Shown piece by piece: positions 3,180 to 60,425 of a stretch of 64,000 nt of DNA (position 1 is its first letter; each line of letters begins with the position of its first letter). Source of the DNA: a virus (Duplodnaviria > Heunggongvirae > Uroviricota > Caudoviricetes); the IMG/VR virus record IMGVR_UViG_2681813421_000002, positions 1 to 64,000 of that record. One strand, 5' to 3'. The notes beneath the pieces are model-generated. The model was not told where the DNA came from, did no database searches, and saw nothing but the letters and a program-made list of their open reading frames with translations. Position numbers and translations under genes: made by a program.

Positions 3180-4001
3180 TTAATAATGGTTAGCCATCCA
3201 TTCAGATCTAATTGATGGGATAAACTCTCTATTGAGAAAGGGGACGTACAGTGTGGTTGTCACATCTGCACCCTCCTTAGCGTTTTTGCAATGTTGCGGA
3301 GGCAGGATCAGTCGGCTTGAGCCTCTCTCAATAGACATTTTCAGGCCGTGGCGTAGGTCTTTTTGCATAAGCTGTATGCGAGCCACAAGCGGGGTAAATT
3401 CGGTTTCAAGCGCCATGCTTTCAATGATGTCAAAGCGTCGGTTAGCGGCCTGCGTGAAGTCCTCCGGATCGTCTTCAAGCGCCGTGCATAAAGCGAGTTC
3501 AGCAATTCGCATCCGTGCTACGCCAGCACTGTATTCGGGAGTTTTCATATCAGGAAGTGACGCTCGCATTCGTTCAAGGAGTTCCGCGCCTTTCCCGGTT
3601 AATGGTTTAAGTATCCAGTCAGTTGGTACTCCATTTACTGGTACGTTGGTTTTCACGTAAGGAGGTACAGTGAGTATTTCTACTGTTTGGGCCAGGTCGC
3701 TCAGGTTAATATCTGCATGATGCGTATTACCGCAGTGACTGCACTCATAGGAGTAGGTCATTACTGCATCGGGGCGCGAATTAACAAATATCCACCAAAG
3801 AGCAGTTCTGCGGTCCTGAACTGTCCAGTTAGCACTGTCGTTAATTTCACCATCCTGCATAGAGTTAAGGTACTCTGTAGTCGTTGCCTCATCTTCTGCC
3901 GGGTTCAGGTCAGAATATTTCAGCGCATCCTTCACGGTAGGGGCGTGGAACTGAATTTCTGTCTCAGGACGGGAAGGCAATGGGAATTTTGGAATGTTCA
4001 A
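3180..4001 (-). CDS. Hypothetical tail-module protein (CxxC motif)
   Basis: 273-aa ORF co-directional with and immediately upstream of the Sit-like gene; CSHCGNTHH motif; no recognisable family. Confidence 0.5.
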   Translation of the reverse strand: MNIPKFPLPSRPETEIQFHAPTVKDALKYSDLNPAEDEATTTEYLNSMQDGEINDSANWTVQDRRTALWWIFVNSRPDAVMTYSYECSHCGNTHHADINLSDLAQTVEILTVPPYVKTNVPVNGVPTDWILKPLTGKGAELLERMRASLPDMKTPEYSAGVARMRIAELALCTALEDDPEDFTQAANRRFDIIESMALETEFTPLVARIQLMQKDLRHGLKMSIERGSSRLILPPQHCKNAKEGADVTTTLYVPFLNREFIPSIRSEWMANHY

Positions 4002-4247
4002 TTATTCCTCCGAAAAGCAGGTATCTGTTCATTTTCCAGAGGATAGGGAGTGTGTGATTTGCGATGGGGATTGAATGAAGATCTTTGCCGGTCGAGAAGC
4101 GATTATTGAGGGTGATTTTTACACCTTAAGTGACGCTACTCACATATCCACAGAGTATTTTTATAAACCTTTTTCCATTTTTAATCCTTTTTAGATCCTT
4201 TTTAGGCGTCGCTGGAGCCAGTAGTGGCGCGGGCTGTAGAGGAGGCT

Positions 4248-4365
4248 GGTGTAAGATTTGCCCTCAATTAAATACGATCGGTGTAAGATTTGCCCTCAGA
4301 AGGTGTAAGATTTGCCCTCAAAAGGTGTAGTAATTGCCCTCAAAGTGGTGTAAAAATTGCCCTCA
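4248..4365 (+). repeat. Iteron array: 5 direct repeats GGTGTAAGATTTGCCCTCA upstream of repA
   Basis: Repeats at 4248, 4280, 4302, 4324, 4347 with 22-32 bp spacing; DnaA-box-like ATATCCACA at 4144-4152; iteron half-copy at 4111-4125. Confidence 0.8.
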
Positions 4366-4389
4366 CCATTTGAAGGATCACACAGGGTT

Positions 4390-5145
4390 ATGAACAGAGC
4401 GGAATTAACAGCAAAAGCCGTCAGCCTGATTGAGTCAGCGACACCTATTAGTCGTAGTCTGGCACAAGCCAATGAGATCACGGAGGCTGCTTATCACCTG
4501 ACTCGCGACCAAAAGCGACTGTTGTTTATTGTGGTGGGAAGACTTCGCTATGCTTCTAAGGATGGCGTTCTTGGTTCAGGTGCCTGTGAGTTGACGGTCA
4601 ACGAATATGCAGAGATGTATAATTTGCCCTCTGCTGAAGCCAGCAAGGATATTCGTAAGGCCATTTCAGGGCTTAGCGAGAAGAAAGTTACGATATATAA
4701 CCCTGATGAATCGACCGAATCAGAAGACAGTTATGAGTCTTATCCCTGGATGATTAAGGATGCCTATTCACCACGGCGCGGGACTTACATTATTCATCTT
4801 AATCCATATCTCATGCCGTTTTTTACTCTGCTTGATAAGAGATTCACAAGGCTGAATTTTACCGAAGTATCTCGCCTTACAAATCCTTATTCTATGCGGC
4901 TTTATGAGTCCTTATGCCAGTACAGGAAGGATGATGGAAGCGGCTTTGCCATACTTGGCGTCGAATGGATGCGGGAGCGTTATGGGTTACCAAAAAGCTA
5001 TCAGCGGTATGCCGAATTTAAGAGAAGTTTTTTAACGAAGGCTGTAGCAGAGATTGAAAAAAATACAAAAATGAAAATAGTCTTCTCAGAGGTGACGGAA
5101 GGCGGCAAAGTTACCAGGATAAAATTTACCTATCAGCAGTCTTAA
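4390..5145 (+). CDS. repA: Iteron-binding replication initiator RepA (Rep_3 family, pSC101 RepA / F RepE / R6K pi type)
   Basis: Track ORF 4357-5145 starts at TTG inside last iteron; ATG at 4390 (MNRAEL) more likely; motifs SRLTNPYSMRLYE and EFKRSFLTKAVAEIEKNT typical of Rep_3 initiators; flanked by iterons. Confidence 0.8.
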   Translation: MNRAELTAKAVSLIESATPISRSLAQANEITEAAYHLTRDQKRLLFIVVGRLRYASKDGVLGSGACELTVNEYAEMYNLPSAEASKDIRKAISGLSEKKVTIYNPDESTESEDSYESYPWMIKDAYSPRRGTYIIHLNPYLMPFFTLLDKRFTRLNFTEVSRLTNPYSMRLYESLCQYRKDDGSGFAILGVEWMRERYGLPKSYQRYAEFKRSFLTKAVAEIEKNTKMKIVFSEVTEGGKVTRIKFTYQQS

Positions 5146-5146
5146 G

Positions 5147-5440
5147 GGCAATTTTTACACCCCTCTCAAGGTGTAGAATTTGCCCTTAACGATCGGCAAT
5201 TGAGGGTAATTTTTACATCTTAATTGCATGTATCTTGTTATTAGCAAGTTGTGTTTTTATATAACGTATTGATATGTAAGGATTATGTAAAAAACGCCCT
5301 CAACCAATATCGTGCGTATCGTGCATTCTTATTGCGCTTTTTTATTATCATTCACTGTGTTAACTGATTGATATTATTGAAATATGTAAAGAATGCCTTC
5401 ATTGCAGATGGATTGATGATGTAAAAAATGCCCTCAAAAT
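5147..5440. repeat. Downstream iteron-like repeats in both orientations plus AT-rich stretch (origin/incompatibility region)
   Basis: GGGCAATTTTTACACC (inverted iteron) at 5147, direct copy GGTGTAGAATTTGCCCTTA at 5170, further TGTAAAAAATGCCCTCA-like copies at 5285 and 5420; visibly AT-rich 5220-5410. Confidence 0.65.
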
Positions 5441-5526
5441 TGCGCTACCTTCCCTACCCGCTATCGTTGAGGTCGTGGGTGCTGACGGGAAATGAGCAAC
5501 CCTCCAGCACACATAATTAAAGCTAT

Positions 5527-6234
5527 TCAGAATTTGATCACTCCACTCACAGCCCCCTTTAACGCGCTTGTAGCCATGCCAGCGGCACCGTTGACCAAAG
5601 CAGAAACACCTGAGCCTGCGGATGTGTATTTCTGGAAAGTGATTGGATATGACAAGAACTCTGACACCTGGTCTCGTGAGCGGGTGATTTCCCCAAGTTG
5701 AGTGGGGAATACGCGCATTTCCTCTTCCAGTTCTTTACCGCCATCCTGAGTTACCCGGTAGAGCCGGATCTTCATTAGATATTCAGGAGGAAGGTTTATT
5801 GTTCCGTCCGGGTTTGTCACGCGGGAACGACGCTCTTTGAACCAGTTCATGATCTTGCCGTCTTCGGTATCCCTTACGGTCATCGTGACTGGTCCGGCGG
5901 TGACGTAGGTTGGCTTGCTGAACTCTACGCTACCTATCACCTTGTTTTCTGTCTCGATATTTCCGCTGCTGTAGGTGATATCCTTCACGAACATATCGAA
6001 ACCGTTCAGACCGTCCACTTCAACCGTCCACTGCCATCCCTGGGCGTAACGAATACGCATAGCGGCAGCAACAATATTTTTCCCGTAGGCAATATCGCTG
6101 CTGTAGTTCCCACTTACCCCGCCGCCGGATATTGCTTTATCCAGAATGTCGCTAATGAGGTTGCTGGTGAATGATTTTGTGTTAAATGACAGTGCGGTGG
6201 TCAACGTTCTGCCAACGCTGCTGAAAATACTCAC
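5527..6234 (-). CDS. Phage tail/virion protein, unassigned
   Basis: 235-aa ORF in co-directional structural gene block; no recognisable motif. Confidence 0.5.
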   Translation of the reverse strand: MSIFSSVGRTLTTALSFNTKSFTSNLISDILDKAISGGGVSGNYSSDIAYGKNIVAAAMRIRYAQGWQWTVEVDGLNGFDMFVKDITYSSGNIETENKVIGSVEFSKPTYVTAGPVTMTVRDTEDGKIMNWFKERRSRVTNPDGTINLPPEYLMKIRLYRVTQDGGKELEEEMRVFPTQLGEITRSRDQVSEFLSYPITFQKYTSAGSGVSALVNGAAGMATSALKGAVSGVIKF

Positions 6235-6249
6235 TCTGCGCCTCCAGCG

Positions 6250-6810
6250 TTAAAAAATGGTAGCCCCCGGAATAATCGCCCGGTTTGAGGACATTTTTTC
6301 TTCAATCTCCTGAACGCGGGCATATAACGTGGCTTCATCAGGTAGATCTGAGTAGTCAAATTTCCCGTCGATGGACGCTCGACGCTGGCGGGCGACATTT
6401 CTGACATTGATAAGCGCCTCCAGGTATTCTTCCAACATACCAATGATTGCAGGCGGCACTTGCCATTCGTCCAGTTTTCTGTCGCGGAGATTAACCAGAT
6501 ACAGCATCCGAAAAGGCCATCGTTCTGAACCTGTCAGCTCTAATTCAATAAAGCCGGATAGTTCATCCGAATAGACCAAAAGGCCATTGCTGTCGGTGAC
6601 GTGAACAAGGGATAGATAATCTTCCGGCAATGGGATTGCGGTGCCACCAGCTTTTTCGAGTTTTAGTGTCTTCACTACCCCGGCCCTGTCCTGATACGTG
6701 GTCAGCGCTTTAATCAGGAAGGCTTTCAGCGTGTCTTCTTCACGCACAAGCAGTGGGTTAAATCGCGTTTTAACGCTTTCTAATAATTCGGTTGGTGTCA
6801 TCGTAGCCAC
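6250..6810 (-). CDS. Phage tail/virion protein, unassigned
   Basis: 186-aa ORF tightly packed in structural block. Confidence 0.5.
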   Translation of the reverse strand: MATMTPTELLESVKTRFNPLLVREEDTLKAFLIKALTTYQDRAGVVKTLKLEKAGGTAIPLPEDYLSLVHVTDSNGLLVYSDELSGFIELELTGSERWPFRMLYLVNLRDRKLDEWQVPPAIIGMLEEYLEALINVRNVARQRRASIDGKFDYSDLPDEATLYARVQEIEEKMSSNRAIIPGATIF

Positions 6811-6855
6811 AACTCAAATTCAGAGGAAATCCCGTCCGGAAGGACGGGAAAGAGA

Positions 6856-7347
6856 TCACTCTACCCAGTTGTAAACAATACGCAGGGAAGGTTTCACGAC
6901 TGCCGTTACGTCTTCGGAAGAGAAGTCCACGGCGTCGGAATACACTTTGCAGTGAGAGTAGGTACGAATCAGACCTTTGTGGTTGCCGCTGTTGGATTCA
7001 GCCGCTGCCTGGAAGGTGATATCAAGATACTCTTTGCCATAAACCATTTGTTTAACGGCTGCGAGTACATCCCCTTCGATTGTCTCAGAGCAGGTGACCT
7101 GGAACTCACCAGAGTTGCGCAATGGCCCGTGTTGGTTGAACTTCATGCCGCCGGGGGCATAATCCTCCACGTCTTCGCGTGTCATTTCCGGTAACTGAGT
7201 GGTACGAACAAGTACAGACAGGTTTTCGTAACCTTTAATAGTCATCCAGAATTCTGAACCAATAAGTTTTTCGCCTGCTGCCAGGTTTTTATTAAACCGG
7301 GATTTCAGGAAGGCGATATCGGCTTTTGTATTTGCAAAACCGGACAT
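6856..7347 (-). CDS. Phage tail protein, possible tail tube
   Basis: 163-aa ORF downstream of sheath candidate; size fits tube proteins; assignment by position only. Confidence 0.4.
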   Translation of the reverse strand: MSGFANTKADIAFLKSRFNKNLAAGEKLIGSEFWMTIKGYENLSVLVRTTQLPEMTREDVEDYAPGGMKFNQHGPLRNSGEFQVTCSETIEGDVLAAVKQMVYGKEYLDITFQAAAESNSGNHKGLIRTYSHCKVYSDAVDFSSEDVTAVVKPSLRIVYNWVE

Positions 7348-15489: not shown

Positions 15490-15670
15490 TCGGAATATTT
15501 CTGTATTCTCACTTCATTCTCAAATAAATCTCACTGTCAGACCATAATTCATTGGGTGATTAAGATATTCTCAAAATGAACTCAATAATCACTCTTTTTT
15601 TATCTCTTTTGGTGTGGATTTTTGGGTGCTTCTCTTTTAAAATTGCATTTTGATTCTCAAATGTGTCTCA
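15490..15670 (+). repeat. parC: parC-like centromere: 5 or more TTCTCA repeats upstream of parM
   Basis: TTCTCA/TTCTCT copies at about 15498, 15517, 15568, 15629, 15655 in AT-rich leader. Confidence 0.55.
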
Positions 15671-15686
15671 GAAGTGGAGCAAGAAG

Positions 15687-16643
15687 ATGCGCATTTTTAT
15701 CGATGATGGTTCAACCAATATCAAAATGCTGTGGGAGCACGACGGGGAAACTCGCACTCACATCAGCCCTAACAGCTTTAAGCGCGGATGGTCAGCAACA
15801 TTTGGTGCGGGCAAGCCGTTTAACTATGTCATTGACGACGAAAAGTATTCGTATGATTTGATCTCGCCAGATGTTCTGCCGACGAATAACGTGGAATGGC
15901 AATACAGCCCGCTTAACGTCCTGGCTGTTCACCATGCCCTGCTGACAAGTGGCATTGAGCCGCAGGAAGTAGAAATTGTGGTCACGCTGCCTCTGGCGGA
16001 GTTTTACGACGACGACGCGCAATACAATCTCGATAACATCGAGCGCAAGAAAGCCAGTCTTATGCGCCCCGTCACGCTGAATAAAGGCAATGTGTTCACG
16101 ATTAAGAAAGTTACGGTACGACCGGAGTCTATTCCGGCAGGAATTGGCCTGTGCGACAATCTGAACCCTGCCCATTCTGTTCTTATCGTCGATTTGGGTG
16201 GAACTACCCTTGATGTTTCAATGGTCGCCGGGCAAATGACGGCAGTTTCCCGTGTTTTTGGCGATTCGAATCTTGGTGTATCACTGGTCACCAGGGAAGT
16301 AAGGCAAGCACTTGCAAGGGCCAATACCGAAACGTCAAATTACAATGTCGATCAGCTCATTATTAACCGCCACGATGAAGATTATCTGAACGACAATATC
16401 AATGACCCATCAGCGATTGGTGATGTGAAAAAGGCCATTGCCGCAAGCATTGACCGTCTGCGTACCCGCGTTCTTGATGTGATTGGCGACTTTAAAGGAT
16501 ATACGCATGTCATGGTGATCGGTGGTGGCGCACCGCTGGTGGCAGATGCAATTCGCGAGCAAGTTAATATTCGTGATGACCGTTTCTTCGTGGCGGATGA
16601 CCCGCAACTTGCTCTTGTTCATGGCCTGAAAGCAATCGGTTAA
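15687..16643 (+). CDS. parM: Actin-like plasmid segregation ATPase ParM/StbA
   Basis: Aligns by eye along its length to R1 ParM (RIFIDDGSTNIK, ISPNSFK, NVLAVHHALLTSG, PESIPAG, DLGGTTLD, GDSNLGVSLVT, YTHVMVIGGGA); track start 15663 is non-ATG, ATG at 15687 preferred. Confidence 0.9.
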   Translation: MRIFIDDGSTNIKMLWEHDGETRTHISPNSFKRGWSATFGAGKPFNYVIDDEKYSYDLISPDVLPTNNVEWQYSPLNVLAVHHALLTSGIEPQEVEIVVTLPLAEFYDDDAQYNLDNIERKKASLMRPVTLNKGNVFTIKKVTVRPESIPAGIGLCDNLNPAHSVLIVDLGGTTLDVSMVAGQMTAVSRVFGDSNLGVSLVTREVRQALARANTETSNYNVDQLIINRHDEDYLNDNINDPSAIGDVKKAIAASIDRLRTRVLDVIGDFKGYTHVMVIGGGAPLVADAIREQVNIRDDRFFVADDPQLALVHGLKAIG

Positions 16644-16650
16644 CGAGGTA

Positions 16651-16995
16651 ATGTCCATGTCTCAGGAACGTAAGAAAGTGATGATTTATCTTCGCCCAGA
16701 GGCTTATGCCAATGAAAAGGCGGCGAGCGAGAAGATAAAAAAACATAGCGATATGGCAAGAACCGCATTGTTGGCAGGGCTTGCGCTGGGAGAAGTCGAT
16801 AGCAGGCTTCCAGGATTACTGGCTTCCCTGCTGACCGAAGATAATAATCCGGAGCTGATCCGAAAAATGCTGGCATCCTTCCTGGAACTACCAGCTGCGG
16901 TTGAGGAGCGCCCTGCCTCCATTGAGCCAGTGAAGGAGCAAGTTGTTGCCAAAAGCGCGTCGGCGCGCAATCTGGCTGACTCTCTACCTGATTGA
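16651..16995 (+). CDS. parR: ParR/StbB-like centromere-binding adaptor
   Basis: Small protein immediately downstream of parM; start 16651 or 16657. Confidence 0.6.
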   Translation: MSMSQERKKVMIYLRPEAYANEKAASEKIKKHSDMARTALLAGLALGEVDSRLPGLLASLLTEDNNPELIRKMLASFLELPAAVEERPASIEPVKEQVVAKSASARNLADSLPD

Positions 16996-17013
16996 CAGAA
17001 GATGTGCTGGTTT

Positions 17014-17038
17014 AAGGCTGCAAATTGCAGCCTTTTTT
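17014..17038 (+). terminator. Rho-independent terminator after parR
   Basis: AAGGCTGCA-aatt-TGCAGCCTT hairpin followed by TTTTTT. Confidence 0.7.
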
Positions 17039-17282
17039 ATGCCTTAATGGTGCCTAATTGGTGTTAATCTGGCACCGGTTAGGTGCTGTTATGGTGCAGT
17101 TTTGTATCTGGTTCCAATTTAGGGCTGATTTCGTGTTAAACAGGATGCAACAGAGGGCAAATTTAGAATGATTAGTGTTATACTTTTGCAAAGCATAATG
17201 ACTCCACTATAGAGCCAAAACCGCATCAATAAGACTTCTGTTTGGAGCCAGTTTGATACCAAAATAACACCGAGGAACGGAT

Positions 17283-17924
17283 ATGATTATATTGGTAGTC
17301 AGCCAAAAAGGTGGCTGTGGAAAATCAACCACAAGCGTAAACATCTGTGCGGAGCTTGCCCGCGCAAATAAGGATGTAGTGTTACTAGATGCAGACAAGC
17401 AAGGAACAGCTGCCCGCTGGGCAGCTGACCGTAACACGGCAGAGGTTTCTCCTGTAATTCATTGTGTCCAGAAGTTTGGTAATATTCGAGAAACACTTCT
17501 CGATCTGGATAAGCGTTATGAATTTGTAGTTGTTGATACAGCCGGGCGCGATAGCAAAGAGATGCGTACAGGCATAACCGCTGCAGATATTGTGTTGGTC
17601 CCATTCAGACCATCTCAACCAGATTTAGACACGCTGGCACACTTTGTTGAAGTGTTTGAAGAGGCTTTGGACCTGATGCCTAATCCTAGCATTAAGGCGT
17701 TCGCAGTCTTAACAATGGCCCCATCCAATCCGGTTGTGAATGAAACCAATGAGGCCAAAGAGTACCTGGCTGAATATCCGCAACTGAAGTTGCTGAAAAC
17801 CATCATTCGTGATCGTAAGGTTTACCGCGATTGCATGGCTGAAGGGAAGGGCGTTGTTGAGATGGACAACGGGAAAGCTAAAGGTGAAATCCAGATGTTG
17901 GTTAAGGAGTTATTAAGTGATTAA
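17283..17924 (+). CDS. parA: Small ParA/ParF-type partition ATPase
   Basis: Deviant Walker A KGGCGKST, 213 aa; ParA/MinD-like. Confidence 0.85.
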   Translation: MIILVVSQKGGCGKSTTSVNICAELARANKDVVLLDADKQGTAARWAADRNTAEVSPVIHCVQKFGNIRETLLDLDKRYEFVVVDTAGRDSKEMRTGITAADIVLVPFRPSQPDLDTLAHFVEVFEEALDLMPNPSIKAFAVLTMAPSNPVVNETNEAKEYLAEYPQLKLLKTIIRDRKVYRDCMAEGKGVVEMDNGKAKGEIQMLVKELLSD

Positions 17925-18204
17925 ACCTCGTAAATCGGTAAAAGCCCCCGAAGTAAAAGACCCCGATCTTGAACGCCGAATTGAGGATTTTGCAAGTAAG
18001 GCTGATTTGGTGCCGGGTGAGCAACCAGAAGACAACAAAGTGCTCGATAAGGACGCCCCACGTGATTTTAAATCTATTCGTGTTGGTTTCAATGAATACG
18101 AGTACCAGGTACTTGATGCGTTAAGTAAAAAGCATAATCGCAGCAAATTGAATATGATCCGCCATGCTATCCTCATGTTAGCGGAGTCTGAGGAAGCAAA
18201 ATAA
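17917..18204 (+). CDS. ParG-like small partition protein (RHH candidate)
   Basis: GTG start at 17917 with AAGGAG RBS, overlaps parA stop; 95 aa with basic/acidic N-terminus and C-terminal helical segment; palindrome GCACCAAT...ATTGGTGC at 18212-18262. Confidence 0.5.
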   Translation: MIKPRKSVKAPEVKDPDLERRIEDFASKADLVPGEQPEDNKVLDKDAPRDFKSIRVGFNEYEYQVLDALSKKHNRSKLNMIRHAILMLAESEEAK

Positions 18205-18472
18205 AGTCTTTCAGGGTGGTTTTAGAACTTAAAAAATCTTGAACCAAAGATGCACCAATACACCACTAATTTGGTGCACCTTTACATCCTTTTTGGTCCC
18301 AATTGTGTACCATTTGTCATTAATTTACTTATGCGCAAAAGTGGGCTTCATGAAAAAGCTCATTATTGAAATAACGATAGAAAGCAATTTCTAATCAACT
18401 AGTGGTTGTCAGCCTATTCGGCTTATAAGATCATACGCTGTTATACGTTTTTTACGCTTTGAGGAATCCACA

Positions 18473-20134
18473 ATGAGTGAGGCAGAAGCCCGCCCGACTA
18501 ACTTTATTCGTCAGATCATCGATGAAGATCTGGCAAGTGGTAAGCACACCACAGTACATACCCGTTTCCCGCCGGAACCGAATGGCTATCTGCATATTGG
18601 TCATGCGAAATCTATCTGCCTGAACTTCGGGATCGCCCAGGACTATAAAGGCCAGTGCAACCTGCGTTTCGACGACACTAACCCGGTAAAAGAAGATATC
18701 GAGTACGTCGAGTCGATTAAAAACGACGTTGAATGGTTAGGTTTTCACTGGTCTGGTAACGTCCGTTACTCCTCCGATTATTTTGATCAGCTCCACGCCT
18801 ATGCTGTTGAACTGATCAACAAAGGCCTGGCGTATGTTGACGAACTGACGCCGGAACAGATCCGCGAATACCGCGGCACCCTGACGCAGCCGGGTAAAAA
18901 CAGCCCGTACCGCGATCGCAGCGTTGAAGAGAACCTGGCGCTGTTCGAAAAAATGCGTGCCGGTGGTTTTGAAGAAGGTAAAGCCTGCCTGCGTGCGAAA
19001 ATCGACATGGCGTCGCCGTTTATCGTGATGCGCGATCCGGTGCTGTACCGCATTAAGTTTGCTGAACACCACCAGACTGGCAACAAGTGGTGCATCTACC
19101 CGATGTACGACTTCACCCACTGCATCAGCGATGCGCTGGAAGGTATTACGCACTCTCTGTGTACGCTTGAGTTCCAGGACAACCGTCGCCTGTACGACTG
19201 GGTGCTGGACAACATCACCATTCCTGTTCACCCGCGCCAGTACGAATTCTCGCGCCTGAATCTGGAATACACTGTGATGTCCAAGCGTAAGCTGAACCTG
19301 CTGGTGACCGACAAGCACGTTGAAGGCTGGGATGACCCGCGTATGCCGACCATTTCCGGTCTGCGTCGTCGTGGTTACACTGCGGCTTCTATTCGTGAGT
19401 TCTGCAAACGCATCGGCGTGACCAAGCAGGACAACACCATTGAGATGGCGTCGCTGGAATCCTGCATCCGTGAAGATCTCAACGAAAATGCGCCGCGCGC
19501 AATGGCGGTTATCGATCCGGTGAAACTGGTCATCGAAAACTATCAGGGCGAAGGCGAAATGGTCACCATGCCGAACCATCCAAACAAACCGGAAATGGGT
19601 AGCCGTCAGGTGCCGTTTAGCGGTGAGATTTGGATCGACCGCGCCGATTTCCGAGAAGAAGCTAACAAGCAGTACAAACGTCTGGTGCTGGGTAAAGAAG
19701 TGCGTCTGCGTAATGCTTACGTCATTAAGGCTGAACGCGTGGAGAAAGATGCCGAAGGTAATATCACCACCATCTTCTGTACTTATGACGCCGACACCTT
19801 AAGCAAAGATCCGGCAGATGGTCGTAAAGTGAAAGGCGTTATTCACTGGGTGAGCGCGGCACATGCGCTGCCGGTTGAAATCCGCCTGTACGATCGTCTG
19901 TTCAACGTGCCGAACCCAGGTGCTGCGGATGATTTCCTGTCGGTGATTAACCCGGAATCGCTGGTGATCAAACAAGGCTTTGCTGAACCGTCGCTGAAAG
20001 AAGCGGTAGCGGGTAAAGCATTCCAGTTTGAGCGTGAAGGTTATTTCTGCCTCGACAGCCGCCATTCTACGGCGGAAAAACCGGTATTTAACCGCACCGT
20101 TGGACTGCGTGATACCTGGGCGAAGTTAGGTTAA
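18473..20134 (+). CDS. glnS: Glutaminyl-tRNA synthetase
   Basis: 553-aa product colinear and near-identical to E. coli GlnS as recalled (HIGH motif [19 protein letters not shown]-type VMSKR); upstream 18360-18472 matches recalled native glnS promoter/leader. Confidence 0.95.
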
Positions 20135-20160
20135 TAGGTATTTCGCCACATGAAAAAGTA

Positions 20161-20186
20161 AACGCCGCTACTGCGGCGTTTTTTAC
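20161..20186 (+). terminator. Rho-independent terminator of glnS
   Basis: AACGCCGC-tact-GCGGCGTT hairpin plus TTTTTT; dmt stop abuts on opposite strand. Confidence 0.75.
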
Positions 20187-22477
20187 TTCATTATTGCAAT
20201 TATATCGTTAGCAACTACACGTGTTGACGCCTTGCAGGAAACCGACCGTCTGGCTGCCATATGATGTACTTTAAACCCGTTTCCTTCATATAGTTCACGG
20301 ATGTTTGGTGCACCACTATTTGTAATCACTACCTTAGCGCCGCGCTGGTGGGCTTCCACCAATAGAGATACCAGCCGTTTCTGTTCGTCGAAACGGAAGC
20401 TATTTCCTGAATAACTGGTAAACCCTTCTGTATCCGGCAGCGGTTCATACGGCGGATCGCAAAAAATCACATCTCCTTCACCAGCCGCCTCGATGACGCC
20501 AGCAAAGTCACCTGATACAAAGGACGTGTTTTTGAGTACGTCATCAGCCAAAAATGCCTCCATCTCTGCATGTGGGAAGTAGGGCGCTTTGTATTTGCCA
20601 TACCCCACGTTGAACTCGCCATTTTGGTTGTACCGCGTTACGCCATTAAAACAGTGCCGATTAAGGTACAAAAAGGCGGCAGCATGATGTAGCTGGTCAT
20701 ACTTTCCTCTGTTAAATGCCTCACGCACTTCGAGGTAAGCGTCAGCGTTGTTGTAATTTTGGAAAAAACTATATGACAGCGTGACGAGCGAATGTCCTTC
20801 TCGCTGCAATGTCTGATAGAAGTTAATCAGGTCACCGTTAATATCATTAAGCAGGTTGTGGCGAAATCCTGCATTCGTAAATACAGAACCGCCACCAACG
20901 AACGGTTCTATTAACCGCTTGCCGTGTGGTAGATGCTCAAGCACTGTAGGCAACTCTGAGAATTTACCGCCTACCCATTTGAAGATCGGACGCTCATATT
21001 CATCCGGAGTCCGGAGTTTTCTTGTGTAGGTAATGGTATTTATTGTTTTTGGCTGTTTAGCTTCCACAGTCGCAAGAATGCGACACCCAATCCATTGCAT
21101 AACAGGAACTGCCATGCTGTTGCCAATCGCTTTGTAACGCGGCCCGTCAGCAGCGAGCATCGCGGCCTCTTCTTCGCTTAAATCTGGATAGTGATTGCGA
21201 AGGTATGCCAGTTCATCTGAGGAAATTGTTTTACGCTTTTCCGTAGGGATCAACGTATGCCCATCAGGAAAACCTTGCAGCCTTTCACATTCGACAGGGG
21301 TAAGACGGCGGACAGCTACTTCTGCGTTTCTTACTTCATAGCAAACGGCTGTTGGATTTTGAGCCATTAGAGATGGTGAAGTATTCTTAGTTGCAGCATG
21401 TTGTGTACCGCTCATACGCTCAGGAAAAGCTAATGTAACAAGATGCTCATGGCTTTCTTGCTCACGCGCCCGCAATGTACCATGCCCCTCTGACCAAAAA
21501 CCTGCTCCTGTGCTGCTAAAAACGGCAAGGTCAGTGGCATCTTTAAAGTCTCTTGCCTTTACTGTCGATGCGGTTTCATCGTCAATATATTCCCCAAATG
21601 CCGCCATCCTGAAAGCGTTTACGGCTTTCGTCGATTTCATACCGGGGGGCATGTCAGCGTGTAGGCATGGATTTAGGCTTTCGCCACTGATTGCAGCGCC
21701 ATTTGCAATAATGGCGGAAGCGATTTCCTTCTTTTTTCGGCTCGGCGCAATATTCCGGCGCACGCCTTCGAACTCAAAAAGTATCGTTGCGGGATCGAGG
21801 TCTGTTCGAGCACTTGCGACAACAAACACGCGTCGGCGTCGTTGCGCCACTCCGAAGTATTGGGCATCAAGGATTCTCCAGGCCACTTTTCGCTGCGGTC
21901 CATAAATACAACCACACTGCGGCCACTTTGGAGCATGGCAACTGGTTTTGACATCCCACCGCCAGAACGCGTTACTTTTTCGCGATTCAGGTCGAGCACC
22001 TGGTTCGAATGGCGCATCTTCTCCAGCCAATCCGGCAAGGAAACATCCGAAGGCGTTATCTGCCGATGACAAGACTCCTGGGACATTTTCCCAGACGATA
22101 ACGGCTGGTTTGAGAAATGACTCAGCCCGTTTGTCGTCAATTGCATTTGCAAGCTCCACATACTTTAAAGTTAGCGCGCCACGCTCATCATCAAGCCCAC
22201 CACGTAATCCAGCGATACTGAATGCCTGACAAGGTGTTCCCCCGACGAGCACATCAGGGGATTCGATTTCCCCAGCCAGGACTTTTTTGGCAAGTTTTGT
22301 CATATCGCCAAGGTTGGCGACATGGGGCCAGCGGTGCGCAAGAACGGCAGATGGAAAAGGCTCGATTTCAGCAAACCACGCCGGACGCATACCCAACGGT
22401 TCCCAGGCAATGCTCGCTGCTTCAATTCCACTGCAAACTGAACCATATCTAAGGTTAACGTTCTGCTTCACCACCAA
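20183..22477 (-). CDS. dmt: Bifunctional DNA methyltransferase: N-terminal C5-cytosine MTase fused to C-terminal Dam-like N6-adenine MTase
   Basis: N-terminal motifs SGIE/FxGxG-like, PCQ ([11 protein letters not shown]), ENV (ENVPG), [16 protein letters not shown]; C-terminal FVGGGS and DPPY; 764 aa. Confidence 0.85.
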
Positions 22478-34039: not shown

Positions 34040-34327
34040 GCAGCCTCCTTTTGCTAATTTAAGGAGCTACCGCGTGAGGTTCCAATCTCAATGGCGGTAG
34101 CACTGACTGGGTTGGAACTACCGGCGCAAAAGGGAACCGGCCTGCCTTTCGGCAGCCCAGCCAGCACTACCATTGATCTCTGAGCTAAACGCTACGTATG
34201 GCTGTGCGATGGCATGACACAAGAAAAGACGCTTTCGGCGTCTGTGTCGCCTTTTGCATTATCCGGGGTTCCAATCCCGGCACCCGTTTTTCTAAGGTGC
34301 CGTAGAAATATACCCCACGATAATGCC
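34040..34327 (-). other. ORF-free structured region between two small immI-like ORFs
   Basis: Multiple mutually complementary GC-rich segments (AGCTACCGCG/CGCGGTAGC pairs etc.); no plausible ORF. Confidence 0.3.
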
Positions 34328-58318: not shown

Positions 58319-58394
58319 TGGTGGCCCCTACCGGACTTGAACCGGTGACCGTGCGATTATGAGTCGCCAGCTCTAACCACTGAGCTAAAGGGCC
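58319..58394 (-). tRNA. tRNA with CAU anticodon, tRNA-Ile2 (lysidine)-like
   Basis: Cloverleaf with encoded CCA; resembles E. coli ileX as recalled. Confidence 0.85.
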
Positions 58395-58421
58395 GGATTA
58401 CTGCCAATTTTGCTTACGCTT

Positions 58422-59249
58422 TTATTTCACCGGAACAAACGGAACAGCGGCATTACTGGTCATATACTGCGGTAATGTACCGTTCCATTTGTTGATCGCT
58501 TCCAACTCCATAACACCGGGGTTCTGGCGCAGAGCTTCACCACGTAAACGAATGGCATCAGCTTCGGCCTGGGCTTTTGTGCGAATAGCATCAGCCTGTC
58601 CGGCAGCTTCCGCGCGCAGCATGTTGGCCTCTGCTTCACGTTGTTTGACCTCTTGCTCGCGTTGCAGGGTTTTTTGGTTTGCCGTAACTTTGGCGTTAAT
58701 ACTGTCAATAACTGTTGGCGGATATTCTGGCTTACCTACATAAGAGAGGCTCATCACCTGAATGCCGATTGGCGTCATTTCTTCCTGAATGTCTTTAAGG
58801 GCTGCATCAAGCAATTCAGATTTGCCACCGTCGATAAATTTGTCGGTGGTCATTTTGCTGGCTAACCGGTTCAGAGCATCTGCAACCTTCTGGCGTAGAT
58901 CGGTATCAGTAATATCATCTACACCTTTGCGATAGGTCTGAAATACCGTTGTGACTTTTGCTGGATCAACCTTGTAGGCTACGCCGATGTGGTAACCAAT
59001 GGTTGTTCCGTCGCTCATCTGGAAGCTGAACGGCTCATCGTATGTCTTCATTTGCTTAAAGGTCGGGAAGATATAAACTTCAGTATTCAAGCCTGTCCAG
59101 TAGCGACCAACACCAACTACTTCACCGATACCTTTATCATCCCCCAGCTTATTTACTTTGATCCCTACGTTACCTGGCTCTACCCGATCGCATCCGGTCA
59201 GACATAAAGAACCCAAAATAATCGCTGCACTAATCAACGTTTTTTTCAT
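58422..59249 (-). CDS. SPFH/band-7 (prohibitin-like) domain lipoprotein
   Basis: Lipoprotein signal peptide with lipobox LTGC; SPFH-like core followed by Ala/Glu/Gln-rich coiled-coil tail. Confidence 0.6.
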   Translation of the reverse strand: MKKTLISAAIILGSLCLTGCDRVEPGNVGIKVNKLGDDKGIGEVVGVGRYWTGLNTEVYIFPTFKQMKTYDEPFSFQMSDGTTIGYHIGVAYKVDPAKVTTVFQTYRKGVDDITDTDLRQKVADALNRLASKMTTDKFIDGGKSELLDAALKDIQEEMTPIGIQVMSLSYVGKPEYPPTVIDSINAKVTANQKTLQREQEVKQREAEANMLRAEAAGQADAIRTKAQAEADAIRLRGEALRQNPGVMELEAINKWNGTLPQYMTSNAAVPFVPVK

Positions 59250-59466
59250 TAATTAATTTCCTGGTTTTTTCACGAAAAAAGACTACTGCGAAAGCCGGGT
59301 AAATGAGCGCGAGAAGGACTCCCAACAATACAAGTATTGTGCTGTTAGATGAGATCATATTTGGCAAAAGCCAAACATACAGAACCAGTGACACAATCAA
59401 ACAGAGGACGGCATAAATATATAACCGCACCCATAGCGTTCGACATTTGTTCGGATTGTTCTGCAT
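59230..59466 (-). CDS. Small two-TM membrane protein, operon partner of SPFH lipoprotein
   Basis: 78 aa, two hydrophobic helices; overlaps SPFH start by 20 nt; GGAG RBS. Confidence 0.5.
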   Translation of the reverse strand: MQNNPNKCRTLWVRLYIYAVLCLIVSLVLYVWLLPNMISSNSTILVLLGVLLALIYPAFAVVFFREKTRKLINEKNVD

Positions 59467-59728
59467 CCTCTCACTCCATTATTTAACGAATAAAAAAGCT
59501 GCGGTGCCGGGTACCTCCCGGTGTCCTTTGGCTGGTTATCCACCGTGGACGGGGAAACAAGGAGAAATGAATGGACTGATATAACCATTTCCCCGCGTGC
59601 GCTTAGCCGCATTCACCGCAATGGTAAGAGCACTTGGCTGGCTGGGCGGCGATGACGCCTGTACGCATTTGGTGATCCGGTTCTGCTTCCGGCATTCGCT
59701 TAATTAGCCAAATACTCTTAACGTTGCA

Positions 59729-59815
59729 CTGGCGGAGAGTAATGGAATCGAACCATCATCGCTTGCGCAATGGGACGGTTTTCAAGACCGCTTGAGCACC
59801 ATGCTCCCTACTCTC
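59729..59815 (-). tRNA. tRNA-Ser (anticodon UGA)
   Basis: 87 nt, long variable arm, anticodon loop CUUGAAA, encoded CCA. Confidence 0.85.
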
Positions 59816-60188
59816 CCGTTATTGTGGCGACCGGTGCTGATCTCCGGCTTGCGGTTATTTCAGACTCTCACGGGCGTTTAATTGCCCCGCCGAACAGCTC
59901 TTTTCCGCAATAGCTGCAATGTCTTTCGCGCATCAGCCTGCGCATTCACCACAATGTTGAGAACACTGGTTGTCACGCTGCAACGCAACATTTATTCATA
60001 GATTGGGATATGACCCCGTTACGCCAGTGTTCTCAACGTTGTAGTGCCGGTTACGGTTCCGGCCAGGCCTCTTCCTCAACGGGGTGTTCTCCATACGGAC
60101 TACCGTTTATTGGTCGTTCCTGCGGTTTATGTTGTGAAGCCAGATGCTTATCTTCTGGTTGCTTCAAAGAGCTGCACTTCATCACAAC

Positions 60189-60262
60189 GGTAAGGGTACT
60201 TCGTAGGGATTCGAACCCTCTGCCAAGCACGGCGATCTCCGACGTCGCAAAATACCCTTACC
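60189..60262 (-). other. tRNA-like fragment (T-arm GGTTCGAATCC with 7-bp terminal pairing, no canonical D/anticodon arms)
   Basis: GGTAAGG...GAGGGTTCGAATCCCT...CCTTACC; fails cloverleaf, no CCA. Confidence 0.35.
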
Positions 60263-60270
60263 TGTTGTGT

Positions 60271-60347
60271 TGGTGCCGGTTAACGGACTCGAACCGCTGA
60301 CATCCTGCTTACAAGGCAGGCGCTCTACCAACTGAGCTAAACCGGCA
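60271..60347 (-). tRNA. tRNA-Thr (anticodon UGU)
   Basis: Cloverleaf with anticodon loop CUUGUAA and encoded CCA. Confidence 0.8.
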
Positions 60348-60348
60348 T

Positions 60349-60425
60349 TGGCGATGGTGGGTGGATTCGAACCACCGACCGACAGCTTAGAAGGCTGCTG
60401 CTCTATCCTACTGAGCTACACCATC
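60349..60425 (-). tRNA. tRNA-Arg (anticodon UCU, reads AGA)
   Basis: Anticodon loop CUUCUAA, T-loop GGTTCGAATCC, encoded CCA; 1 nt from tRNA-Thr. Confidence 0.85.

Follow-up and report, generated by a model that had tools for sequence, protein, structure and literature searches.

A glutaminyl-tRNA synthetase gene of D6-like phage-plasmids, probably acquired once long ago and patched by recombination with the host

The DNA analysed here (the window) is a stretch of 64,000 nucleotides (nt) from the viral record IMGVR_UViG_2681813421_000002, and it belongs to a D6-type (D6-like, P1-family) phage-plasmid that carries a complete gene for glutaminyl-tRNA synthetase (GlnRS), glnS. The gene is orf62 of Escherichia phage D6, encountered in another member of the same family. 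We consider it likely that this glnS descends from one old acquisition, has been kept by selection and has been patched by recombination with the host gene, with no recent capture involved; that judgement applies to the explanation as a whole, comprising the cargo unit, its single old capture, gene conversion, selection, and the expression and added enzyme dose predicted from them.

The presence of glnS on D6-like elements has already been published (2018-2019, surveyed in 2021), and the present finding is a rediscovery that adds no new kind of system. Bustamante et al. (2019; PMC6799933) report glnS in D6-like genomes, call it a moron, credit Gilcrease & Casjens 2018 with its first description and propose a fitness or plasmid-maintenance role by analogy with cysS of plasmid pBT1. 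Wein et al. (2021; PMC8297927) list glnS on five Escherichia plasmids and, from a protein tree, speak of "five transfers to plasmid" and of "recent transfer". An earlier note on this DNA, made from the sequence alone, had likewise named a recent capture of host glnS as one of two alternatives, the other being a supplement to translation capacity together with the element's tRNAs. It had also placed a complete glnS between a ParA/ParG-like module and dmt, with plasmid or phage genes on both sides and no chromosomal flank, and this description holds: a 553-amino-acid (aa) open reading frame (ORF) at 18473..20134, scoring 1067 bits against TIGR00440, lies among StbA/StbB, ParA, a 95-aa ORF and dmt. 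The features of the locus are as follows, with positions in the coding sequence (CDS) counted from the start codon.

18205..18379, no strand assigned: plasmid intergenic DNA, not host-derived, with repeats at 18246-18316 and about 60 nt at 18317-18379 without similarity to chromosomal glnS loci
18380..18472, plus strand: captured promoter and leader, with predicted -35 box TTGTCA (18406-18411), -10 box GATCAT (18429-18434) and Shine-Dalgarno sequence GAGGAA (18461-18466)
18473..20134, plus strand: glnS CDS, glutaminyl-tRNA synthetase, 553 aa and stop (matches to TIGR00440, Pfam and 1O0B)
18559..18841, plus strand: tract specific to the plasmid lineage (CDS 87-369), where all 12 fixed differences from chromosomal glnS of E. 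coli are found
18873..20126, plus strand: mosaic region exchanged with chromosomal alleles (CDS about 401-1654), as judged from shared polymorphisms, chi-square and bootstraps
20127..20159, plus strand: plasmid-specific last codons (AKLG-stop) and 3' spacer, found in 75 plasmids and on no chromosome among 5,426 E. coli genomes
20160..20186, no strand assigned: intrinsic terminator AAACGCCGC-TACT-GCGGCGTTT and T-run, a 9-bp GC-rich hairpin detected by terminator scan

The captured unit and its insertion site

The host-derived block, at about 18380-20186, comprises a predicted promoter, the gene and a predicted terminator. Homology between the window and E. coli K-12 is restricted to about 18385-20130, at 96.0% identity (96.5% over the CDS). 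The DNA immediately to the left (18205-18379) showed no similarity to 87 chromosomal glnS loci, including in a short-word BLAST search of 18290-18396, and is about 70% identical between the window and the E. fergusonii plasmid pEF-4, against 95-98% within the glnS block. The left junction, which the earlier note had located at 18205-18360, is thus better placed at about 18380.

About 90 nt upstream of the start codon match the chromosomal glnS promoter and leader, with about nine differences from K-12 in the 88-nt leader. Thirteen enterobacterial genomes share the arrangement AACTAnnGGTTGTCA...TATAAGATCAT...TTTGAGGAATCCAC-ATG in front of glnS. The window retains it from about 18395 onward, and the nagE terminator that lies upstream of glnS on chromosomes is missing from the window in a comparison with 13 enterobacterial loci. 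A consensus scan of 17800-20500 returned TTGTCA-17-GATCAT as the sole sigma-70-like site on the plus strand, with a Dam site (GATC, 18429-18432) inside the -10 hexamer. At the other end, the window and E. coli differ at five of the 15 nt that make up the last five codons, and the 25 nt that follow the glnS stop codon had no match, the 3' spacer giving none in a short-word BLAST search against the 87 chromosomal loci. The full terminator reads AAACGCCGC-TACT-GCGGCGTTTTTT (20160-20186); it is predicted on both strands, and its T-tail overlaps the stop codon (20183-20185) of dmt, which converges on glnS. An Rfam scan detected no RNA family at the glnS locus.

The terminator is homologous to that of glnS in Citrobacter, Salmonella, Enterobacter, Kluyvera, Klebsiella, Trabulsiella and Atlantibacter, whereas in E. 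coli K-12 and E. ruysiae this classic enterobacterial terminator is gone and other sequence, which we take to be REP-like, stands in its place. The K-12 chromosomal gene (b0680) resembles the window copy in its core promoter, -10 GATC, Shine-Dalgarno sequence and 549 of 553 residues, and differs from it in the upstream nagE terminator, in an AKVGE-stop terminus and in the REP-like sequence, rather than a hairpin, downstream. Of the native promoter and terminator attributed to the gene in the earlier note, the promoter is borne out by this comparison; a terminator is present as well, but it is not that of E. coli K-12.

Two further D6-like plasmids, pRHBSTW-00605_3 of E. marmotae and the plasmid of S. 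dysenteriae 93-119, lack glnS and display the empty site. There the parG-like stop codon is followed by about 135 nt with TTGGT(A/G)C-type repeats, by a terminator of the form AAAGCCCC-nnnn-GGGGCTTTT, and by the dmt stop codon, and the glnS unit therefore occupies the position of an ancestral intergenic terminator. The locus accordingly has the attributes by which a moron is recognised: its own promoter block and terminator, as predicted from homology and scans; an empty site in related genomes; and a block 96-97% identical to Escherichia chromosomes between flanks without chromosomal match.

Comparison with pEF-4, a divergent D6-like plasmid, shows a single capture that this lineage shares. 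Its backbone near the locus is 50-94% identical to the window and its immediate flanks 70-91%, and identity steps up at about 18380 to the 91-98% of the glnS block. Its terminator abuts the same end of dmt, its promoter carries the plasmid-specific variants CTAGTGG and ACAATG that the window also has, and it has the plasmid state at six of 12 diagnostic sites. Both ends of the block are also set apart from chromosomes. The 5' 476 nt (18385-18860) are 93.9-95.4% identical in the chromosomes listed and up to 100% identical in plasmids, and the 81-nt plasmid-type 3' end occurs in 75 plasmids and in none of the 5,428 chromosomal copies that 5,426 complete genomes of E. coli contain. When a 21-mer of the 3' junction was sought in metagenomes, all ten contigs recovered had a D6-like context, and no chromosomal donor appeared among them.

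These junctions also settle the matter of mis-assembly, a check that the earlier note had called for. A block of 1.7 kb at 96-97% identity to a chromosome carries a general risk that chromosomal glnS reads were joined to a plasmid contig, and nothing more specific speaks for such a chimera. The same junctions recur in the record of phage D6 (MF356679), in about 100 complete plasmids of the PLSDB database, from E. coli, Salmonella and Shigella, that were assembled independently of one another, in 75 complete E. coli genomes and in the ten metagenome contigs, and the block differs from chromosomal sequence at both ends; we give an assembly artefact practically no credence. Integration of the element into the chromosome through glnS homology was considered separately and rejected, no chromosome having the plasmid-type 3' end.

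The source of the gene can be approached through the diagnostic sites. At several of them (87, 234, 334, which is Val112, 348 and 369) the plasmid state is the common outgroup state, and pairwise distances among the plasmid lineage, pEF-4, E. coli and E. ruysiae are all similar over CDS 1-400, at 4-6.5%. The search of species genomes for a donor covered 80 loci, with E. ruysiae as the sole Escherichia other than E. coli and without E. albertii, E. fergusonii, E. marmotae or E. whittamii. Because of these outgroup states and the retained ancestral terminator, the data suggest a donor that branched outside the sampled E. coli and E. ruysiae chromosomes.

Mosaic alleles and gene conversion

Mosaic structure was analysed over the first 1650 nt of the CDS in nine D6-type plasmid alleles, pEF-4, seven E. 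coli chromosomes and E. ruysiae. Between the D6-type and E. coli alleles, all 12 fixed differences fall in CDS 87-369 and none downstream. Shared polymorphisms number 28, and 27 of them are at or after CDS 444. The observed maximum chi-square value for the breakpoints was reached in none of 2000 permutations. In neighbour-joining trees the D6-type plasmid alleles are monophyletic in 93 of 100 bootstraps for CDS 1-400 and in 0 of 100 for CDS 401-1650, where the alleles of D6 and pYU39 group with the chromosomes of K-12, CUVET16 and O157 (93 of 100).

The D6 allele illustrates the pattern. It matches the window allele in the 5' part, and in its last 550 nt it is 3-4 nt from the O157 and K-12 chromosomes and 23 nt from the window allele. 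Its 3' third is of a common chromosomal type, found at 99% identity or more in 2,254 E. coli records, whereas that of the window is rare on chromosomes (19 records), with 98.2% identity to the best chromosome listed. On this comparative evidence, chromosomal tracts lying between plasmid-type ends are a signature of gene conversion, and such a mosaic explains why a published protein tree was read as five transfers.

A recent capture of resident host glnS, or several independent ones, would account for a protein about 99.3% identical to E. coli GlnRS and for the scatter of plasmid alleles among chromosomal ones over CDS 401-1650, and Wein et al. (PMC8297927) do class glnS as a recent chromosome-to-plasmid transfer. 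The evidence of the two ends contradicts it: the plasmids have in common a 3' end and a terminator absent from E. coli chromosomes and a 5' tract with 12 fixed differences, and pEF-4 shares both the identity step at the left edge and the junction of terminator and dmt. The scatter in the tree is itself explained by conversion tracts between plasmid-type ends. We therefore regard recent capture as very improbable, and its place, in the earlier note as in the 2021 survey, is taken by a single old capture followed by gene conversion. The near-identity to E. coli glnS on which that note had built is true of the protein (549 of 553 residues) and not of the DNA: identity between the window and the chromosomal copies listed, which were sampled evenly from 5,428, is 96.3-97.3% over 18397-20126. 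At the DNA level the gene is thus divergent rather than host-identical, an outcome that the note itself had named as telling against its proposal.

The direction of exchange that the alleles demonstrate is from chromosome to plasmid only. A wider proposal, which we put forward tentatively and think doubtful, is that D6-type glnS is in two-way allelic exchange with the chromosome, that D6-like phage-plasmids shuttle glnS among Escherichia and Shigella, and that the gene is kept since carriers rely on their copy. The high 3' diversity of chromosomal glnS might partly come from exchange with plasmid alleles.

Chromosomal glnS differs between E. coli strains by 0.5-1.0% over CDS 1-400 and by 2-3.9% over CDS 401-1644, and the gene upstream of it may be nagE, an IS200 transposase gene or a gene for a DeoR-family regulator.

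The enzyme, selection and possible roles

The product has the attributes of a class I glutaminyl-tRNA synthetase. Its score against the NCBIfam equivalog TIGR00440 far exceeds the cutoff (425.8 bits), and the alignment takes in the whole profile (1-524 of 524). Pfam recognises three GlnRS/GluRS domains (tRNA-synt_1c, _C and _C2; the catalytic domain and two anticodon-binding barrels), and the HIGH (LHIGHAKS) and MSK (VMSKR) motifs are intact. Aligned with the crystallised E. coli GlnRS (1O0B), it differs by I112V, S478N, D510E and V552L and lacks the terminal Glu554. We infer an intact host-type enzyme, predicted to charge host tRNA-Gln; since the tRNA calls in the window include no tRNA-Gln among the element's four tRNA genes, the substrate must be that of the host.

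Plasmid and chromosomal alleles are separated by a ratio of nonsynonymous to synonymous rates (dN/dS) of 0.015-0.04. Seventeen changes, all of them synonymous, separate the window from pEF-4 in the unconverted CDS 1-399, and a single capture would mean that they arose on plasmids; between the window and K-12 the same stretch has 15 synonymous changes and one nonsynonymous change. About 105 plasmid copies were compared in protein, and 100 of them are at least 99% identical. As judged from these substitution patterns, the counts show purifying selection acting on the plasmid copy itself, and for that reason plasmid glnS is very likely active.

The same counts bear on the idea that the gene is a neutral hitchhiker whose frame stays open solely through repeated conversion by the chromosomal copy, which is under selection. 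CDS 401-1650 is often converted, and chromosomal tracts could repair damage there. The 5' region, however, contains no chromosome-derived tract in any sampled allele and yet has the 17:0 and 15:1 ratios; the promoter and terminator are conserved too, and copies borne in Salmonella, where the host gene is only about 85% identical, are equally intact. Neutral carriage is accordingly improbable.

A further suggestion is that the plasmid encodes a variant enzyme resistant to some toxin, inhibitor or defence system aimed at host GlnRS. Resistant synthetase paralogues do occur on mobile elements for other synthetases, mupirocin-resistant IleRS being an example. The window enzyme differs from that of K-12 by three conservative substitutions and its last residues, and these vary among plasmid alleles; I112V is the sole fixed change, and Val is the common enterobacterial state at that position. 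We judge such a role to be extremely improbable.

Taken together, the history that we favour would run as follows. An ancestor of these elements would have copied glnS a single time, its source being an Escherichia-like chromosome on which the ancestral enterobacterial terminator was still in place, and the unit would have entered the spacer between the ParA/ParG-like operon and the convergently oriented dmt, where relatives without glnS have repeats and a terminator. It would since have behaved as a stable cargo, or moron, of D6-like P1-family phage-plasmids, forming a self-contained sigma-70 transcription unit, and recombination with the resident chromosomal glnS would repeatedly have overwritten its middle and 3' parts, leaving two ends of old plasmid lineage. 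In the lysogen, the gene is predicted to be expressed from its own promoter and to supply a second dose of an essential enzyme, and by analogy with the host gene its expression probably rises when replication of the element outpaces Dam methylation. The payoff may be either a buffered GlnRS supply or a host dependence that favours plasmid retention, as with cysS of pBT1.

The methylation step draws on work on the chromosomal gene. PMC11741368 reports that dam deletion or mutation of the promoter Dam sites derepresses E. coli glnS (citing Plumbridge & Soll 1987) and gives a change of +1.08 log2 in RNA-seq. The plasmid gene retains the -10 GATC and adjoins the element's own Dam-class methylase gene.

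Several considerations weigh against this history. The probable position of the donor outside E. coli and E. ruysiae is deduced from 12 sites and the terminator. The promoter is predicted from a consensus scan and from homology to the chromosomal promoter, and the sample of alleles behind the mosaic is small (ten plasmid and eight chromosomal). Chromosomal tracts could themselves be the source of the low dN/dS in the converted part. Glutamine is not enriched in the element's proteins (3.7% over 53 long ORFs), and the experiments of Wein et al. (PMC8297927) showed that plasmids can lose fitness by carrying an essential gene that is redundant.

Two accounts of the benefit stand as rivals, each unlikely in our estimation. 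One holds that glnS is a dependency or addiction module, the plasmid copy being the main source of GlnRS, for example through down-regulation of the chromosomal copy in carriers, and loss of the plasmid or of glnS then being costly. It has an experimental precedent in pBT1 cysS, it has been proposed for D6-like glnS already (PMC6799933), and it would fit a long and strongly constrained retention; an unrelated IncI-type plasmid of Citrobacter cronae, moreover, carries cysS and glnS beside a higB toxin gene. Against it, chromosomal glnS is kept: a match was found in 5,425 of the 5,426 genomes, at 5,428 chromosomal places, and the gene is intact in both carriers examined (98228 and CUVET16-559). 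These observations run counter to a strict essential-plasmid variant, under which carriers would have lost or damaged the chromosomal gene. The element also has other stability systems, and D6-like lineages without glnS persist.

The other account, to which we assign the same low probability, is that glnS supplements translation capacity for phage growth together with the element's tRNAs. The element has four tRNA genes, very large phages possess tRNA synthetase genes, among them homologues of GlnRS, and lytic replication would be expected to raise gene dose and probably also the activity of the promoter on undermethylated DNA. The missing tRNA-Gln and the unremarkable glutamine content weakly disfavour it, and the enzyme is essentially the host's own, so that it could change quantity only.

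Relatives, neighbouring genes and other synthetase-carrying elements

Over 2.4 kb (18000-20400) the window is 97.9% identical to Escherichia phage D6 (MF356679), where orf62 is annotated "glutaminyl-tRNA synthetase, similar to E. coli GlnS". Window and D6 have a common gene order, namely P1-like tail and capsid genes, StbA, StbB, ParA, orf61, GlnS, dmt, hrdC/rdgC and baseplate genes, and this order together with nucleotide identity around the glnS locus identifies the window as D6-like and of the P1 family. The C4 antisense RNA of P1-type immunity regions is also present (Rfam); on the minus strand at 34090-34300 it adjoins an isrK-like RNA. Among 5,426 complete E. coli genomes, 70 contain the 2.4-kb region at a coverage of at least 80%, as do 98 PLSDB plasmids (E. 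coli, Salmonella and Shigella); all 30 of the top matches listed are records of 74-129 kb, a plasmid size.

Both D6 orf62 and glnS of pYU39_89 are the same gene in the same locus with the same neighbours. D6 orf62 is 97.6% identical to the window gene in nucleotides and 99.1% in amino acids, and the pYU39_89 gene 97.7% in nucleotides. Apart from the 3' third of the allele, D6 differs in that dmt is annotated as two ORFs (orf63 and orf64) and is one fused 764-aa ORF in the window. The genes next to glnS are these.

15663-16995: StbA/ParM and StbB, actin-type partition genes, left of ParA
17283..17924, plus strand: small ParA-type partition ATPase, 213 aa, equal to D6 orf60 (Pfam AAA_31/CbiA/MipZ/ParA; PHROG 164, ParA-like)
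17917..18204, plus strand: 95-aa ORF, candidate ParG-like ribbon-helix-helix centromere-binding protein, equal to D6 orf61 (weak match to the Arc-like repressor family phrog_3431)
20183..22477, minus strand: dmt, a fused C5-cytosine and N6-adenine (Dam-class) DNA methyltransferase, 764 aa (Pfam DNA_methylase and MethyltransfD12), equal to D6 orf63/64, "similar to P1 dmt"

Two partition systems thus adjoin at 15663-18204, one actin-type (ParM/StbA and StbB) and one made up of the Walker-type ParA and the 95-aa ORF. The 213-aa ATPase has ParA/MinD-type matches and no N-terminal DNA-binding domain, as is typical of type Ib partition. Its partner had no Pfam or NCBIfam match and only a weak Arc-like match over residues 53-94 (phrog_3431, E=1.8e-4); ParG is at most a plausible label for it. 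Across 111 plasmids the partition genes beside glnS are 75-99% identical to those of the window, and D6-type plasmid glnS is at least 97.6% identical. Short TTGGTGC/GCACCAA-type repeats flank the parA/parG-like operon (17040-17140 and 18246-18316), and in relatives without glnS five or six TTGGTGC-type repeats fill the entire spacer between parG and dmt (record stretches 4423-4557); they are candidate centromere or operator sites of the ParA/95-aa system. In many RefSeq plasmid records the adenine methylase is flagged as incomplete or a pseudogene; in the window dmt is fused. The four tRNA genes, on the minus strand at 58319-60425, are Met(CAT), Ser(TGA), Thr(TGT) and Arg(TCT); the published set of pYU39_89 is Asn, Thr, Ser and Met, its fourth tRNA differing from the window calls.

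A plasmid-borne synthetase that matters to its host is cysS of pBT1 (Canals et al. 2019; PMC6333337, PMC6785131), the required copy in Salmonella Typhimurium ST313 D23580, in which chromosomal cysS is down-regulated. Like D6-type glnS it is a full-length gene redundant with the chromosome, on a plasmid of about 85-90 kb. It is nevertheless a xenologue, 79% identical to the host gene in nucleotides and 89% in amino acids, against 96-97% in nucleotides for D6-type glnS, which also recombines with the host copy and resides on a phage-plasmid.

An independent capture of glnS, again spanning the -35 box to the terminator, is found on plasmid p.S175-1.4 of Citrobacter cronae (NZ_CP060445). That plasmid has an unrelated MOBP/MPF_I IncI-type conjugative backbone. 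Its Citrobacter-like glnS, which has lost the -10 GATC, shows about 89% identity with Citrobacter chromosomes and 86.6% with the window. In NZ_CP060445.1, positions 3331-7155 hold cysS and glnS beside the higB toxin gene. Very large phages share the trait of a virus-borne synthetase, with GlnRS homologues in uncultured phage genomes of 630-640 kb, but these are distant homologues of 50-54% aa identity within large sets of translation genes, whereas the window has a single near-host gene on a 90-kb temperate phage-plasmid.

Some records were set aside. A GlnRS of 41% aa identity in Salmonella pSa1423-90k (NZ_MK356557.1) is an indel artefact (159 gaps in 4.7 kb) in a D6-like plasmid with an ordinary glnS. 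In K. pneumoniae pKLP00155_2 (NZ_OP378648.1, 316 kb), glnS sits in the chromosomal block nagA-nagB-nagE-glnS-chiP-chiQ-fur-fldA, and the record, a piece of chromosome under a wrong label or else a chromid-like replicon, was rejected as a capture. The apparently damaged plasmid copies of FWSEC0003 and NCYU-25-82, the latter sparsely annotated, have scattered single-base gaps, most likely sequencing errors, and were excluded.

What is added to the published record is that the captured unit and its empty site are now defined to the nucleotide, together with selection on the plasmid copy itself. If the tentative idea of two-way exchange were true, shuttling would help explain why the 3' two-thirds of chromosomal glnS are 3-4 times more diverse than the 5' third, and the exchange would explain gene trees that wrongly point to several recent transfers. 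Glutaminyl-tRNA synthetase on D6-like elements is a clean natural case in which to ask what makes a mobile element retain an essential gene that its host already has, despite an experimentally suggested cost, and the single old capture, its boundaries, the empty site, the ancestral terminator and a mosaic that misleads trees may serve those who study phage-plasmids and essential genes on plasmids.

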